Assembly (NCBI GenBank): GCA_965219445.1
Contig: CBDCNQ010000002.1
Coordinates: 160,001 to 224,000, forward strand
Length of the DNA: 64,000 nt
Reading direction: 5' to 3'
Source of the DNA: Longimicrobiales bacterium
GTDB taxonomy: Bacteria > Gemmatimonadota > Gemmatimonadetes > Longimicrobiales > Gaopeijiaceae
The notes below the pieces were generated by a model that was given only the letters and a program-made list of their open reading frames with translations, did not search any database and was not told the DNA's origin. This document shows positions 23,371-30,413 of the stretch, piece by piece (within the stretch, counting starts at the first letter, position 1; every line of letters begins with the position of its first letter). The position numbers and the translations under genes are program-made.

Positions 23371-23608
23371 TGGCTGACCGGGCTCCAGTCGAAGTCGATG
23401 TGCGGAGCGTAACAGGCCCAAGGTGGTGAGATACGGTGTGTGTGGTACTTGGCCAGGTCCGAGTGGACCTGACGTCGTGGTGTCTGGATATGGGGGTTGG
23501 CCCCGGGGATGCCCTTGGCAGGGATGGCCTGGACTTGTCGGTTGTCCTTGATTATCTAATGAATGTAAGGCATTAGTGGGTTTTGGGGGGAATTCTTTGG
23601 AGGACACC

Positions 23609-23842
23609 GTGATCGAATCCGCTATCACGTCGAAGGGGCAAACGACATTGCCCAAGCCCGTACGGGAAGCGCTCGGCATACGGCCTGGGGACCGAGTGCG
23701 TTACGTAATTCTGGACCATGAGGTTCGAATCATCCCGGTGCGGCCCGTTCGTCGCCTGTATGGCGCATTCCAGTATGACGGTCCGCCTGTGACGCTGCAG
23801 GACATGGAGCGCGCCGTCACCGAGGGAGCGGTCGGGGAGTGA
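23609..23842 (+). CDS. AbrB/MazE-like antitoxin
   Basis: ITSKGQTTLPK.VREALGI.PGD. Confidence 0.9.
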   Translation: MIESAITSKGQTTLPKPVREALGIRPGDRVRYVILDHEVRIIPVRPVRRLYGAFQYDGPPVTLQDMERAVTEGAVGE

Positions 23843-24246
23843 TTGCGCTCGATACGAATGTCCTGGTCCGATATCTGGTGGCCGATGACGCCAAGCAGGC
23901 GGAAGCAGCACGGGTGCTGCTGGCGGGTTTGACAGCTGAGCGGTGCGGCTTTCTGTGCCGCGAGGTGACGGTAGAGCTTGTTTGGGTGCTGGAACGGGCC
24001 TATCGATTCTCCCGTGACCGGATTGCGACCGTGCTCGAGCAACTGGTGGCGACTGAAGAGCTCGAGCTTGAGGCTGTCGATGATATTGCACGCGCAGCCC
24101 GTGGTTACCGTCGAGGCGGAGCTGACTTCTCCGACCTGATGATTGCCGCCGCCGCAAGAAGGTCCGGAGCGCATCCTCTCTACACTTTCGACCGACGAGC
24201 AGCCCAACTTAAGGGAGCAGAACTGGTGAAGGAGCCAAGCTCATGA
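23839..24246 (+). CDS. vapC: PIN-domain toxin
   Basis: MIALDTNVLVRY, E..WVL, DFSD..I, YTFD; overlaps the antitoxin stop. Confidence 0.9.
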   Translation: MIALDTNVLVRYLVADDAKQAEAARVLLAGLTAERCGFLCREVTVELVWVLERAYRFSRDRIATVLEQLVATEELELEAVDDIARAARGYRRGGADFSDLMIAAAARRSGAHPLYTFDRRAAQLKGAELVKEPSS

Positions 24247-24895
24247 GTACAGACTTGGAACACAGCACCGTTGGCACACCTAACCGTGAGGCCGATGATC
24301 GAATGTCAGTTTTATCCACCCTGGCTCATCAGGCTGTGACAGCAGTACCAAAGCTCGTGATTTCAGATCGATTGCGTAAGGCCGCCAAGTACGATCCCTC
24401 AAAGCAATACGAGTTTCGATATCGCGCGAAAGGTCATCGCGACCTTCCCCACGTTGTCAAGTTGTCTGGAGGACGCTCAAGCGGGATGCTCCTGTTCGCG
24501 CTCCTTGAGAACAAGATCCTCGACCCAGACCGAGGAGACGTAATCGTTTTCAACAACACCTCGGCGGAGCACCCGGATACGTACCGCTTCACGCGAGACT
24601 GCAAGGTCGCTTCTAGCCGTTACGGAGTACCGTTTTTCTGGGTTGAATTCCAGACCTATGAGGACGCCCGCAACGGCGAGTGGACCCGCATTCCATCCTA
24701 TCGCCTCGTCAATGACGAGATCAGATCTCCGGACAATCCAGATGGATTTCATTGGCGCGGCGAGGTCTTTGAGGAGTTGCTATCCTGGTCAGGATATATC
24801 CCGAATCAGTTCAGTCGCATCTGCACCAGAAATATGAAACTAGAGGCAACGCGCCTGTTCCTGAAAGACTGGTTGGCATGCAAGGAGTCCATCCC
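24243..24895 (+). pseudogene. PAPS-reductase-like PP-loop protein, 5' part (IS256-interrupted)
   Basis: VVKLSGGRSSG PP-loop, FNNTSAEHPDTY, RICT..MK; ends at TSD TCCATCCC. Confidence 0.8.
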
Positions 24896-24924
24896 GAGGT
24901 TGGGTCAATAGGTGTGTAAATGTT

Positions 24925-26169
24925 TCAGGCGGCGTTTTTCCGCTGTTGGGTTGAGACGGGCTTTCCGTCTTCGAACTTTCTTCCTTCAAATACGTCCTTG
25001 AGGAGGTGAGGAGCGTCGAGCCTTCTGAAGCGCTTCTCCGCCACCAAGAGCAGCTTCCAGATCAGCGCCGTAGCGCTCTCGACCCGCTTGAAGCGCTTCG
25101 CCGCCGTTGTCCTGAGCCGTACTGCGGCAAAGGGGCTCTCGACCACGTTCGTCGTGCGTAGATGCTTCCAGTGGTCCTCGGGGAAGTCGTAGAACGCCAC
25201 CATCCGCTCCCAGTCGTCCTCGAGTACATCCACCGCCTTCGGATACCACGGTCTGTAGCGCCTGGCGAACGCCTCACGGGCCTTCAGCGCCTCGGACCGC
25301 CTCGGTGCGTAGACCACGGTCCTGAGAAGGTCCTTCGCCTCGCTCTGCTCCCGCTGAGGCAGCCGGTCCAGCACGTTCCTCATCTTGTGGTTCCAGCACC
25401 GTTGCTCGCCCGCCTCAGGCCATACCTGCCGTACTGCGCCCCAGATCGCCGCGTTGCCGTCCGCCATCAAAAGCCGGGGCGCCTCGATGCCGCGTGCCTT
25501 CAGATCCCGCAACACCTCGGACCAGGACTCGACCGACTCTCGGTAGCCCGATCTCAGGGCCAACACCTCCTTCGTACCATCTCGCATCGCACCGAGAACC
25601 ACCAGCAGCGCTGCCTTGTCCCGCTCGAGCCCCGCCTTCACGTAGATCCCGTCCGCCCAGACGTAGACGACCTCACGGTCGGCCAGCGAGCGCTTCGACC
25701 ATTCCTCGAATTTCCTTGTCCATCCCGCCCGCAGCCGCCAAATCGAAGACTTCGACAACGGGGCCCCCTCGCCCAGCAGGCCCCGCATCGCCAGCTCGAA
25801 GTCTCCCTCCGCCAGCCCGTGCAGATACAGCTCCGGAAGCAGAGCACCCACCTCCTTCGTCCGTCGTGCGAACAACGGCAACACCCGACTCTCGAACCGC
25901 TCCTCAATGCCTCGAACCCGGGGCCGTCGGAGCATGATCGTGCCCGAGCTCATCGCCAGCCGCCGAGCCTTGCCGTAGCCGTTGCGGTAGCCTGGCGCCG
26001 GGTCTACGACCGTCTTCCGCTCCGACTTCTCCCGGCCGAGCAACTCCGTCACTTCCTCCTCCAGAATCCGCTGGACCATCTCCTGGGCCTTCTCACGAAC
26101 CAGCGCTTCCAAGCACTCCCACGTCGGCGTGCTGGACTCACTCTCGGGTCCCACCATATTCTTCCTCAC
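24925..26169 (-). CDS. IS256 transposase
   Basis: YRNGY, LYLHG, WADGIY, ADG, QRCWNHK, RTTNVVES. Confidence 0.95.
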   Translation of the reverse strand: MRKNMVGPESESSTPTWECLEALVREKAQEMVQRILEEEVTELLGREKSERKTVVDPAPGYRNGYGKARRLAMSSGTIMLRRPRVRGIEERFESRVLPLFARRTKEVGALLPELYLHGLAEGDFELAMRGLLGEGAPLSKSSIWRLRAGWTRKFEEWSKRSLADREVVYVWADGIYVKAGLERDKAALLVVLGAMRDGTKEVLALRSGYRESVESWSEVLRDLKARGIEAPRLLMADGNAAIWGAVRQVWPEAGEQRCWNHKMRNVLDRLPQREQSEAKDLLRTVVYAPRRSEALKAREAFARRYRPWYPKAVDVLEDDWERMVAFYDFPEDHWKHLRTTNVVESPFAAVRLRTTAAKRFKRVESATALIWKLLLVAEKRFRRLDAPHLLKDVFEGRKFEDGKPVSTQQRKNAA

Positions 26170-26439
26170 GAGGCATCGTTCCTTTCCCCCGGGCGCTCAC
26201 CCGGGATTCGCTGGTTAACTTCTTACTACCTAGCGGAAAGGGGTCGCCTCTTTTTTTACACACCCTTCTATGGGGCTGGCGGTCAAGACGCACCTTCCCC
26301 ACGCGCCGTCGGCTCATTTTTTGACCGTCGGCGTCCGCATGGTTTGGATTGCCCGGTCGACGACTCAGGGTGGGGAGGGGTGCGCTCGCAGGGTCCGCAT
26401 CGCAGTCCGGAAGACGTTCACAGCCGTCGCGTTCTCCGC

Positions 26440-26600
26440 TCTGGAGCGGGAACCATCCTTCTATCTGGGACTCTGTGGCCCATCGCTTCGTTCGGCTCTT
26501 CCAGGGGTGCATAGCCTTTGAGTGGGGGCTTGGGCTCTCTGCCCCGGCCCACGGTGTGTATGGATGCTGTCCCCTGTAACCGGTTCGCTTCCGTTTCGTC
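26440..26600 (-). ncRNA. Putative bridge/seek RNA of the IS110 element (boundaries approximate)
   Basis: Stem-flanked internal loop carrying UACACACC and UCAAAGG (match the target) plus AUAGAAGG (matches the donor junction). Confidence 0.75.
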
Positions 26601-26653
26601 GGACCCCATGTTGTGACCGCTTTCGACCCCACGCTCGCCGATCCCAGGCCGGT

Positions 26654-27709
26654 TTACTCCGTCGCTTCCAGTCTCTTGGGGTCGTACGCTTCGCCCGTGC
26701 GCCACACCGCTAGCACGATCGAGGCGAGCTGACGCGCGATCGTCAGCTTCGCCAGATTCGGCTTCGTGCCCCCCTCCAGGAGTCGCTCGTAGTGGCGGTA
26801 CAAGGGTTCGTTTTCGGCCCGACCGATCACCGTCGTCGCTGCGCCCTTGAACACACGCTTCAGCGTGTGGTTGAAGTTCCGATTCAGCCCCCGCGTCTGC
26901 TGTACCGGTTCCCTTACCCACCGCCCACCCGGACCCCGCACCCAGTCCGACGAGCTCCGCATCACGACGCCCAGTCCGCAGTACGCCCAGAACCTGCTCC
27001 GGCTCTGGAACCGGTACGGCGTCACCACCACCGGCAGGAGCTCCGCCGTCCGGATCGGACCCAGACCCGGGCACGTCTTCAGCACATGCCACTCTCGATG
27101 CTTGCGTGCTTCCGCCAGCAACGCCTTCTCGGCCTTCGCCCTCAATGCCACGAGTGCGTCGTGCTCCTCGTACAGCAACCCGGCCGTCGTCCTGCTCGCT
27201 TCCGGCAGCTTGGCCAACCACTCCTCCCGGTCGCGCTTTAAGTAGACCGAGCGCCCCGCGCCGTAGGCCACTCCTCTCGAGCGCAGCACGCTCTTGAGCC
27301 GGTTCTTCACCCGCACCGTGTCGCCGACCAAGAAGTCGTAGCTCTTCGCCCGTTCCCCCAGCCGCCTGAACTGGCCCCGGTTCTTGTAGACCGTCGTCTC
27401 CAGTGATCCGATCCGCAGCTTCTCCGCCAGGGCAAACGCGTCCAGCTTGTCGGTCTTCGGGCCCCGGCTCTTGCCGACCCCCGCCACCGTCAGCTCCTCC
27501 ACGTGCGGCTTCAGCACCTCGTACAGCCACCCCGACAGCGTCCCTTCTTCCAGGCATAAGTGCCGGTTCCTCGGAATCCCTCGCAGCACCTCGATCAGCG
27601 CCCGCGCGTTCGTCTCCACCACCTGCGAGCCCAAGCGCTTGCCGCTGGGGCCTACAATCCCCAGCGTGCAGCTCGACGCGTGTGCGTCGAGTCCGATATA
27701 CCTCTCCAT
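26654..27709 (-). CDS. IS110 DEDD recombinase/transposase
   Basis: YIGLD, LEEG, KTDKLDA, PGLGP, YCGL..RSSS; GAGGAGG RBS. Confidence 0.93.
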   Translation of the reverse strand: MERYIGLDAHASSCTLGIVGPSGKRLGSQVVETNARALIEVLRGIPRNRHLCLEEGTLSGWLYEVLKPHVEELTVAGVGKSRGPKTDKLDAFALAEKLRIGSLETTVYKNRGQFRRLGERAKSYDFLVGDTVRVKNRLKSVLRSRGVAYGAGRSVYLKRDREEWLAKLPEASRTTAGLLYEEHDALVALRAKAEKALLAEARKHREWHVLKTCPGLGPIRTAELLPVVVTPYRFQSRSRFWAYCGLGVVMRSSSDWVRGPGGRWVREPVQQTRGLNRNFNHTLKRVFKGAATTVIGRAENEPLYRHYERLLEGGTKPNLAKLTIARQLASIVLAVWRTGEAYDPKRLEATE

Positions 27710-27884
27710 GGGCATCCTCCTCTTGGGTAGGACGGGTTGGGTTGCTTGCTTGCGCGAATAATGATGAACGCGCACCCGCTCCCGGAGGAGAACGCCTCTT
27801 CGTCTTCGGGCTGCTTCGCTGCTGATCGGTACCGGTAGCGGTCGCCATGCCCCTATGATGCCTTTGATCCTAGCTCTCCATCCC

Positions 27885-28665
27885 CCGGCTAGGCCACTAC
27901 GGGAGTCGTTCTCGGGTCGATATCGCCATGATGTATCAGCGACATCGTCGCAACCGAGGCGGGGTCCCCAAAGAGGTCTTTGCCGAAAAGAGGAAATACG
28001 CACTGACACGTCCTTACGTCCGCTCGGAACAGCGATACCGAGATTTCTCCTCGGTTTGGCGCCCCTTCCATAATGCTGCCCTCGAGGGCAGAGCCTACGG
28101 GGACCAGGCTTGGTTCGGTGACGGAGGCGCCGAGTACCTAGCTTTCGTCGGACTTCGGGCAGACGAGCAACTTCGTGTTAAGCGTGTCGAGGCACGAAAC
28201 GCCGGTCCGGGAGCGTCCGGCTATGAGGGCGAGCATGTATACATGCCCTTAGCCGACATGGCTGTAGCCCGGGACGATGTGAACACGTTCTGGGACCAAC
28301 AAGATTGGGACCTCTCGTTGCCCAAGGCCGGAAGCCTCTCCAACTGCGTCTTCTGCTTTCTTAAGGGTGCCGCCAATCTAAGAGCTGTCCACAACAAAAT
28401 GGAAGAACAGAAGCAACAAGATAATCCCGGATTTGGTTCACTAGTGGGTACACCTTCCGATGTGTCATGGTGGATACGCATGGAACAAACCTATGGCCGA
28501 GACCTAGACGCCGAGGAGAGAGAAATCACAGGGACACCAGAGCACAATTTTCTTGGTTTCTTTGGAGCATCGAGTACCTTTTCCTATGAGTTTCTAGCTC
28601 AGAGTGACGAGTGCGAGATCACGAAATATTCGAGCACACTCCTACCGTGCGACTGTACGGAATGA
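27885..28665 (+). pseudogene. PAPS-reductase-like PP-loop protein, 3' part
   Basis: In frame with the 5' part after IS removal; VGLRADE..R, SNCVFCFLKG, terminal PCDCTE. Confidence 0.8.
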
Positions 28666-28693
28666 CCATCACATACACCCGCTGAGCCGCTAG

Positions 28694-29875
28694 ATGCGAT
28701 TGGTCAGCGACCGGGTAGCCTATCTGGATAACCAGGCGACCACGCCGGTAGACCCCCGAGTCCGCCACGCGATGTTCCCTTTCTTCGATAGTTGTTTTGG
28801 GAATCCGCATTCGAGGGACCATGTGTACGGATGGAACGCCACAGACGCTGTAACTGTGGCACGAGCTCAGGTAGCACAGTTCATCGGTGCAGACGATCAC
28901 GAGATCCTCTTCACGTCGGGAGCTACCGAGTCATGTAACCTAGCGCTACGTGGCATCGCGAGGGCCTCTGACGGTAAACGGAATAAGCTGATCACCGTGG
29001 CGACGGAACATCCTGCCGTTTTGGAAACAGCACTGGACCTGCGACGTCTCGGGTTCGAGGTGGTTGTCCTACCGGTGTCCTCCGAAGGTCTCCTCGATCC
29101 TTCTGACCTCGAGCGGACACTCGACAACCGAACCCTGCTCGTGTCTATCATGGCGGCAAACAACGAGATTGGTGTCCTCCAGGACCTTACTGACATCGCC
29201 CACTTATGCCATGCCAAAGGTGTGCTGTTTCATACCGACGCAACGCAAGCTGCTGGGCGGATTCGTATCGACGTAGGCACATGGGACGTTGACCTCCTTA
29301 GCCTGTCTGCCCACAAGTTCTACGGTCCAAAGGGCGTAGGAGCTCTATTCGTTCGATCCGGTGTATCGCTTGAACCAATGCTGACAGGTGGTGGCCAAGA
29401 GCGTGGGTTACGACCAGGAACAGTGTCACCAGCCCTCACGGTTGGCTTCGGCGAAGCATGCCGTATAGCTGGAGAGGAATGGAGAGACGATACCCGGCGA
29501 ATGTCTGAACTCACGGTACGCCTTAGGCAGGGCCTGCATGCCTTGTGTCCGAACATCCGTATCTTCGGCCATCTGCAACAACGGCTGCCGGGTTCCCTCA
29601 TGGTGGGTTTTCCGGGAATTCCGGCGAGCGAAGTCATTTCTATCGTGTCGGATCGCATAGCGGTGTCTACTGGTTCCGCGTGTGCTTCCGGTACCGCCGA
29701 GGCCTCGAAAGTCCTTCTCGCATTAGGTGTGGCACCGGATATCGCCATGACGGGTGTGAGAGTGAGCTTGGGACGCTTCACGAAGGAATGCGATATCGAG
29801 ACTGCACTCGCTGCCCTGTCTGACATTGCTCCGATTGCCGCCAGGAACCGACCCTACGATGACAAAGTTTCTTGA
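28694..29875 (+). CDS. Cysteine desulfurase (IscS/DndA-like)
   Basis: YLDNQATT, FTSGATES, ANNEIG, HTDATQ, SAHKFYGPKG, STGSACAS. Confidence 0.95.
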   Translation: MRLVSDRVAYLDNQATTPVDPRVRHAMFPFFDSCFGNPHSRDHVYGWNATDAVTVARAQVAQFIGADDHEILFTSGATESCNLALRGIARASDGKRNKLITVATEHPAVLETALDLRRLGFEVVVLPVSSEGLLDPSDLERTLDNRTLLVSIMAANNEIGVLQDLTDIAHLCHAKGVLFHTDATQAAGRIRIDVGTWDVDLLSLSAHKFYGPKGVGALFVRSGVSLEPMLTGGGQERGLRPGTVSPALTVGFGEACRIAGEEWRDDTRRMSELTVRLRQGLHALCPNIRIFGHLQQRLPGSLMVGFPGIPASEVISIVSDRIAVSTGSACASGTAEASKVLLALGVAPDIAMTGVRVSLGRFTKECDIETALAALSDIAPIAARNRPYDDKVS

Positions 29876-30413
29876 CCTTCGATTTGCACCAGGATCTCTG
29901 ACCGGTTTCACTCCGCGCGGTATCGCAGGGTTCGGAGACCTGCGGCCGGCAGCGGTGGTCCGAGAGCTCATTCAGAATTCCCTTGATGCCACCGCCGAAG
30001 CTGGGGAAACATCCGCGATCGTCCGCTTCCGGCTTACTCAAGTGAGAACGGACGATATCCCAGGAATTCGGAGCTACAAGAAAGCTTTTTTTGAAGCAGT
30101 GCAAAGTAATAAACGGAGCAATAATGGCACACTCCCGAGTCAAGCAGCGAGAGTCGTCCAGGTCATCAGGGAGGCACTGGATCGGGACAAGCAAGACGTT
30201 CTCTCTGTACTCGATAACGGTATTGGCTTGAACGAAGCTCGGTTGACTGCTCTGCTGAGTGATGGAATGAGTGTCAAGAGTGACGCGGCTACAGGCACGT
30301 TCGGCAACGGACACTCCGTCGTCATCCCGGCGTCCGACTTCCGCTACGTGCTTTATGGAGGAGTTACCAACTCGTACAAGAAACTTGTGACCTCATCACC
30401 TAAGGCATCGTAA
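29859..30413 (+). pseudogene. GHKL (HATPase_c-like) ATPase protein, apparently 3'-truncated
   Basis: VRELIQNSLDA, DNGIGL, GTFGNG boxes; ends soon after the last box. Confidence 0.7.

Follow-up and report, generated by a model that had tools for sequence, protein, structure and literature searches.

Elements of the IS1111 type are known to strike the terminal repeats of other mobile elements: IS4321 and IS5075 reportedly insert at a fixed base in the terminal inverted repeat of the Tn21 family, an observation said to go back to Partridge and Hall in 2003. The locus described here follows the same habit, with the left terminal repeat of an IS256 element taking the place of the Tn21-family repeat. 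The RNA-guided mechanism of such insertions has also been published already. In IS621, as set out in the descriptions of its bridge RNA (Durrant 2024, PMC11208160; Hiraizumi 2024, PMC11208158), target and donor internal loops address a 14-bp site with a 2-bp core through a DEDD recombinase with a catalytic serine, and the core consists of a variable C and an invariant T (PMC11208158). In the seekRNA elements ISEc11, ISKpn4 and ISPa11 of the IS1111 group, as described by Siddiquee et al. (2024, PMC11187229), a long non-coding region lies downstream of tnp, the guide order is reversed relative to the IS110 type as read along tnp, insertion proceeds without target duplication, and relatives are naturally reprogrammed. 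Accounts differ as to whether an emptied target is closed again once the element has left, rejoining having been seen for IS621 and not for ISEc11 or CazIS110-1. A further described system, ISPpu9 with its RNA ssr9 (PMC12288879), has an AG core like the element reported here and differs from it in belonging to the IS110 group, in targeting REP sequences and, as described there, in having no junction promoter.

In the window, by which we mean the whole 64,000-nucleotide stretch analysed, the IS110/IS1111-like element resides within an IS256 element (24896-27876, minus strand) that itself splits an SspD/DndC-like gene (Table 1). The host element has the Mutator-type transposase, the terminal repeats and the 8-9-bp duplication of the IS256 family, and the insertion point is the AG core inside its left terminal repeat, again without target duplication. 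The non-coding region downstream of the recombinase gene measures about 390 bp, compared with about 150 bp upstream, and it is in this longer region that the guide RNA stretch lies. In the RNA, the top-strand complement sits 5' of the bottom-strand match, and the subterminal inverted repeat comprises 12 matching bases with extensions of 7 (core counted) and 3 beyond it. The longer downstream region, the order of complement and match, the lack of target duplication and the natural reprogramming seen among relatives are those of ISEc11, ISKpn4 and ISPa11 (PMC11187229). The subterminal repeats of the IS1111 group are near perfect, 11-13 bp long and likewise have 7-bp and 3-bp extensions. The locus departs from those elements, as they are described there, in the imperfection of its subterminal repeat (two 1-nt gaps), in a clear covarying donor loop, in its IS256 target, and in the absence from the recombinase of the IS1111-group motif GL-P----S(t)G, in place of which it reads GLGVVMRSSSD. 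Because the layout rules of IS1111 are followed and the protein motif is not, we call the element IS1111-like. Beside the split SspD/DndC-like gene lie a cysteine desulfurase of the SspA/DndA type and a gene whose ATPase domain matches PADLOC PDC-M33A (window 24243-30413), possibly a phosphorothioate-type or sulfur-transfer defence locus that is here broken. A PIN-domain gene (23576-24246) and a small upstream ORF resembling its antitoxin may form a VapBC-like pair.

Both IS110 domains are present in the recombinase (PF01548, 39.7 bits with a cutoff of 29; PF02371, 32.5 bits with a cutoff of 21.3). D8, E54, E55, D87 and D90 are invariant among 66 sequences, and S252/S253 are at least 90% conserved, as expected of a catalytic serine; in a weak alignment, this serine run falls on the ESG loop of IS621. 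Judged by the Pfam matches and catalytic residues, the protein belongs to the broad IS110 family, and its fold assignment rests on the profile matches. Within that family its profile scores place it in a divergent clade: the NCBIfam full-length IS110 model NF033542 gave 112.6 bits over residues 4-340 and its cutoff of 140 bits was not reached, the best matches in a plasmid collection were annotated IS110 transposases at 24-28% identity, and similarity to the IS621 protein is barely detectable (E 0.022). Position 247 of the recombinase is G in 143 of 148 rows, and position 254 is S in 121, A in 19 and G in 4.

Table 1. Features of the locus in window coordinates; functions of the RNA parts and of the promoter are predicted.
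Feature	Coordinates	Strand	Details
IS256 8-bp target-site duplication	24888..24895	+	second copy 27877-27884
Interrupted host gene, SspD/DndC-like, 5' half	24243..24895	+	3' half 27885-28665; one 477-codon frame across halves
IS256 right terminal repeat	24896..24920	+	TCAATAG version, two differences from target; uninterrupted in 29/29 copies
IS256 transposase, 414 aa	24925..26169	-	NF033543 295 bits, cutoff 150
Target right half GGTGTGTA	26257..26264	-	inner part of IS256 left terminal repeat
IS110/IS1111-like element	26267..27861	-	1,595 bp; core copies flank at 26265-26266 and 27862-27863
-35 box TTGACC	26281..26286	-	17 bp from CATCAT (27855-27860) in joined circle; predicted promoter, read from junction
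3' hairpin of RNA	26436..26449	-	double changes in 5/5 pairs
Donor-binding loop, simple internal loop	26450..26498	-	comparative alignment
Left-donor guide AUAGAAG	26458..26464	-	identical to IS right end + core; 65/70 exact, 8 variants
Candidate short right-donor guide GAAGC	26485..26489	-	4/5 with GCATC; inferred from position and conservation
Target-binding loop of bridge/seek RNA	26502..26576	-	outer stem CAGGGG/CCCCUG, GCAU/AUGC, inner hairpin
Second target guide UCAAAG (left half + AG core), then GC	26514..26521	-	GC = first two donor bases, handshake-like
First target guide, 9 nt, UACACACC-G	26552..26560	-	complementary to GGTGTGTA right of core
IS110-family DEDD recombinase, 351 aa	26654..27709	-	D8, E54/E55, D87, D90; conserved S252/S253
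IS256 left terminal repeat, outer part	27864..27876	-	ends in left target half TCAA

An earlier note on this DNA had read the stretch as a bridge or seek RNA, and the motifs on which it relied are present on the minus strand: TACACACC at 26560-26553, TCAAAGG at 26521-26515, GATG at 26484-26481 and ATAGAAGG at 26464-26457, all falling within a CAGGGG.GCAT...ATGC.CCCCTG frame. Of 200,000 base-pair-block shuffles of the right end (363 nt), 0.5% contained the 8-mer, 1.4% the 7-mer and 0.009% the two combined; ATAGAAGG turned up in 0.3%. RNA folding, which the note had proposed as a check, gave weak support from the single sequence: the 256-nt region had a z of +1.3 and an uninformative minimum free energy structure without the loop, and the 86-nt loop folded alone reached z -2.2. 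Comparative folding supported the structure: the two-loop structure had 92.5% of cells paired and double changes in 16 of 31 pairs (68 of 81 distinct RNA sequences), a level attained by none of 500 shuffles, and slid controls were 35-53% paired, a comparison that favours the structure since it was drawn from the same alignment. A search of Rfam returned nothing relevant to the RNA stretch, the one match (E 0.89) being a chance one. An extra A is found in the linker between the loops (window 26499-26500) in 8 of 24 RNA copies, this one included, and 5 nt of the inner hairpin are missing from one copy. The target guides, each 9 nt long, are bracketed by CCA and UG or UA, which corresponds to a frame resembling box C/D that has been described for TIGR RNAs and bridge RNAs (PMC12045711).

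The reconstituted target TCAAAGGGTGTGTA has no occurrence in the genome of origin (G000). It is found intact in related genomes, inside intact IS256 left repeats, indicating that the reconstitution was right. Across 23 related genomes, selected principally because they possess the IS256 repeat (which is present in 23 of 314 family genomes, G000 counted), the pattern TCAAAGRGTGTGTA occurs 98 times in 16 genomes, with G in every one among the matches listed, and the empty site in relatives reads as the left half, AG and the right half. Covariation between guides and sites across relatives had been named beforehand as the test that could refute a bispecific IS110-family guide RNA directed at the IS256 end. 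Scaffold anchors allowed the target loop to be parsed in 100 of 157 related loci, the other 57 being truncated or too divergent, and IS ends were placed from IS-internal motifs; some loci may come from overlapping sets, both having been drawn from one genome collection. The second guide matched the left flank at 4.34 of 5 positions (23 classes, 68 loci), against a permutation mean of 2.45 and a maximum of 3.41 in 100,000, and the first guide matched the right flank at 5.67 of 7 positions (41 classes, 72 loci), against 3.42 and a maximum of 4.14 in 100,000, with the best of three registers taken for observed and null alike; kin are not independent, so that the permutation values overstate the case. 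Both target guides, together with the left-donor guide considered below, covary with their DNA sites, and at the level of sequence comparison these results demonstrate site specificity, the RNA fold and the correspondence of the three guides with their sites.

Individual relatives illustrate this correspondence. A relative with a 95% identical protein (L009) sits at a right-type repeat, TCAATAG, and its guide has changed to TCACTAGG, and IS256 relatives at 73-87% protein identity are hit at the same site as here. In several relatives (L029, L092, L121, L131, L136) the element's own guides fail to match its insertion site; these were presumably mobilised in trans or rearranged. The commonest target class among the relatives is GGATAG-GAAATCCAA, which many of them share (L010, L013, L014, L078-L116) with unrelated flanks.

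The junction had been placed as AGG|, which proved imprecise, as the evidence gives a 2-bp AG core: two relatives (L007, L223) have A directly after it. All 75 right ends and all 100 guides have A as the first core base, and the second varies between G and A, with AA in 6 of the 75 right ends, a pattern that mirrors the invariant T and variable C of IS621. At 63 of 68 loci, including 3 in which both sides change together, the left junction agrees with the two bases that surround the end of the second guide. On the plus strand of the window, the target reads ACACACC-CT-TTGAT and the donor ATGATGC-CT-TCTAT. This opposite-strand layout is that of IS621, with a CT core, an invariant T, a first guide identical to the left half, a second guide that covers the core, and two handshake-like bases past the second guide (as described in PMC11208158), and the 'reversed' guide order is therefore probably the same machine facing the other way. 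The claim that the guide design is that of both IS621 and IS1111 stands for the IS1111 order, and for IS621 only upon reading the opposite strand. Against this mapping stands the AG core of ISPpu9, a member of the IS110 group. Besides the double internal loops, the 14-bp site, the 2-bp core and the DEDD and serine residues that it shares with IS621 as described, the element differs from that system in carrying its RNA in the right end and in having target and donor inverted relative to tnp. It also differs in guide register: 31 of 42 first-guide classes have a clear register, and only 4 of these include the whole core, 15 stopping one base short and 12 two bases short. The first guide of this element stops one base short.

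G000 holds 24 left ends of the element, of which 23 share a single insertion base within the IS256 left repeat and one is off-target. One further orphan left end of a related element (C2:661602) lies at GGGATAG, a site of the class that the 80-85% relatives target. None of the 29 right IS256 repeats of G000, which differ at two positions, carries an IS110 insertion, and no intact target is left in this genome. Occupied junctions number 23 in G000, 7 in G124, 6 in G007, 5 in G170, 4 in G127, 2 in G169 and 1 in G123. Three of these seven genomes (G000, G169, G170) have no intact target, and the other four keep 5, 5, 1 and 46, so that a general saturation of targets does not hold.

Each of the five unoccupied IS256 left ends of G000 has its own one-base change within the 14-bp target. 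Three of them have no difference over about 1,370 bp of IS256 body, and each of the three is changed in the same 3 bp, reading TC, then 3, 2 or 1 bases of the element's right end, then the core. Such hybrids of a target prefix and a donor suffix make up only 4 of 92 one-edit variants, a class defined afterwards, and the three empties are among these. Variants of the target longer or shorter by one base occurred 0 times in 23 other genomes. The remaining two empties are not hybrids. In G170, which lacks an intact target, eight empties all have the core AT. We put it at about even that the three identical-body empties are excision scars of the recombinase. Precise excision would restore a site open to re-invasion, so that only imprecise excisions would last. 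Mis-repair of a heteroduplex at the two handshake positions was considered as a source of the hybrids and dropped, because the opposite-strand mapping puts these positions on the other side of the core, the variants lying beside the predicted first-strand cut.

For the empty ends alone, a different account is a genuine possibility, if short of probable: they may be ordinary mutants that survive because the guide cannot use them, and not footprints of the recombinase. The GTGAGTA variant, one of the two non-hybrid empties, is shared with G125, a genome in which no occupied junction turned up, and is accordingly a natural allele; TCAGAG is not a donor hybrid, the one-A deletion falls in an A run, and TCAAAAG and TCAAATG, which differ in the core, are common alleles in other genomes (G328, G170). 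Ordinary mutation does not readily explain why the three empties with identical bodies all changed within the same 3 bp and all fall in the hybrid class, even if that class is post hoc, nor why the length variants are missing from the 23 other genomes.

On the donor side, the right end of the element is reproduced by the left-donor guide in 65 of 70 loci, spanning 8 variants, the pattern used to find the end limiting the visible variation. GAUG had been suggested as a short right-donor guide and was dropped, since it is kept in only 8 of 27 distinct 5' sides of the donor loop while the donor end stays GCATCAT (56 of 64 loci). Just upstream of GAUG, AGC is conserved in 26 of the 27, at a position equivalent to the target guide, and GAAGC replaces GAUG as the candidate. 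Donor-loop handshake bases showed no covariation with the target (p 0.24 and 0.31). Where a site is occupied, the pair of bases left of the core agrees with the target at 53 of 64 left junctions, and at right junctions it agrees with the donor in 69 of 70. A junction of right end and left end is assembled in one relative (L151) and in no case in G000; the joined ends read TTGACC-17-CATCAT, a predicted junction promoter.

Very probably, then, this IS1111-like IS110 element uses an RNA encoded downstream of its recombinase to insert at the AG core in the IS256 left repeat, by a mechanism for which IS621 and ISEc11 serve as the analogy. Following the work on those two elements, the ends of the element would join to form a circle, the junction of which would create the promoter, and the circle-junction transcript would supply both recombinase and RNA. 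The target loop would open the 14-bp site and pair with both of its strands, the donor loop would pair with the circle junction, and a DEDD/serine tetramer would swap strands at the core. Existing IS256 copies would be invaded singly until no intact target remained in G000, and the interrupted copies would probably be immobilised. The proposal of a natural recombinase/guide/target/donor set is well supported, with about 40 readable guide variants in a clade below the NCBIfam cutoff. It is unlikely that the target loop is the working RNA by itself, with protein contacts at the subterminal repeats doing most of the donor-end recognition and insertion able to dispense with the donor loop. An 82-nt RNA alone is reported to support movement of ISEc11 (PMC11187229), target-loop-only RNA is given as 90% of transcripts for CazIS110-1 (bioRxiv 2025.10.25.684509), and the right-donor guide is weak here; but the left-donor guide tracks the right end as described above, the donor-loop stems are 98-99% paired, and full excision and integration of CazIS110-1 are reported to need the full-length RNA (same preprint).

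That the hybrid junctions of the empty ends arose in assembly or polishing from reads of occupied copies is distinctly improbable. Mis-aligned reads of occupied copies would introduce just the extra letters seen, and the check with independent contigs covers one of the three hybrid sites (C4:199262). At that site, however, the junction and its unique flank are spanned by contigs of two runs, X1 (depth 5) and X2 (depth 6.4), that agree with 0 other letters and 0 gaps, with 28 letters right of the inserted base where the bridging rule asks for 31; X1 and X2 belong to one study, each run with its own sample, and the source sample may be one of the two. Least probable is amplification of a single IS110 insertion by the IS256 transposase as a composite, which would make the repeated site one event: the outer 13 bp of the IS256 repeat stay intact and 7 of 19 occupied copies having both ends carry their own 8-9-bp duplication (some others with flanks swapped with another copy), but the IS256 bodies are mostly identical (0 differences) and the IS110 copies inside are mosaics (3-17 sites off consensus, one deleted copy at 318), so that the composite did not spread as a clone, and the idea is further contradicted by a near-identical IS110 haplotype in an IS256 154 differences away, by use of the same site in the IS256 relatives, and by guide-site covariation. 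At least 8 IS256 ends in G000 have 8-bp duplications that match the flank of another copy, which suggests rearrangements between copies or assembly misjoins.

Returning to excision scars as the reading of the identical-body empties, we tentatively propose, with slightly less than even confidence, that G000 shows the end state of an RNA-guided sweep. All intact IS256 left ends would have been taken, and the identical-body empties would once have been occupied and have lost the element imprecisely, keeping 1-3 end bases and hence being immune to re-invasion. The same proposal includes three first-guide registers, one RNA using two of them, and an identical IS256-directed guide pair that would have arisen or been exchanged at least twice on different scaffolds. 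As to register, the off-target copy (C2:336726) matches 6 of 9, counted by hand, in the first register, the one including the whole core. As to guide history, a tree was built from 44 recombinases, all relatives, taken from parsed loci of at least 57% identity with a match of more than 260 residues and one per guide/identity class. IS256-directed guides fall in two of its lineages, each beside relatives aimed at GGATAG-type sites, and a single clade was rejected (AU p 3e-5); the root is by midpoint only, so the tree does not give the order of events. A 68% identical relative (L093) occupies that same base in an IS256 whose transposase is 73% identical. The guides of L093 agree with those of this element at 9 of 10 and 8 of 10 positions, and its inter-guide hairpin agrees at 18 of 27 positions with this element's and at 19 of 27 with its sisters'. 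The IS256 guide pair on two lineages may reflect either an old exchange or an independent acquisition.

Among titles and abstract openings, we found no account of IS256 targeting, imprecise excision or retargeting of this kind; IS256 is absent from the main text of PMC11208160, and the supplementary target tables of PMC11208160 and PMC11187229 may include an IS256-targeting element. If the hybrid junctions are true scars, they would be genomic footprints of rejoining after excision. The tolerance in first-guide register bears on off-target prediction for bridge editing, and the same guide pair on two lineages on guide acquisition and natural reprogramming. The locus would also be a clean case of one IS silencing another.

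Several further configurations of the element were observed. At C5:1612737 in G000 and in L005, the IS110 right end abuts AG sites inside the 3' portion of its own tnp gene (corresponding to 26773 and 26746 in the window), and in these self-joined copies the RNA-bearing 3' end is duplicated in tandem. An orphan RNA copy (G000, C5:1023332-1023470), at which no recombinase match was found, has a donor loop that looks intact and a degenerate target loop with different guides. Copies C5:1023332 and C5:1612737 resemble the ssr9 copies described as detached from tnp or tied to a tnp 3' fragment (PMC12288879). Junction errors in occupied copies include a 3-bp repeat at the right junction and a missing C at the left junction (L002; G000, C5:1030825). 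Finally, a 1.9-kb group II intron-like element encoding a reverse transcriptase with a YADD motif (G000, C4:1169766-1171667) lies in an IS256 left repeat, three bases past the core at the IS110 right junction, giving a three-layer nest.
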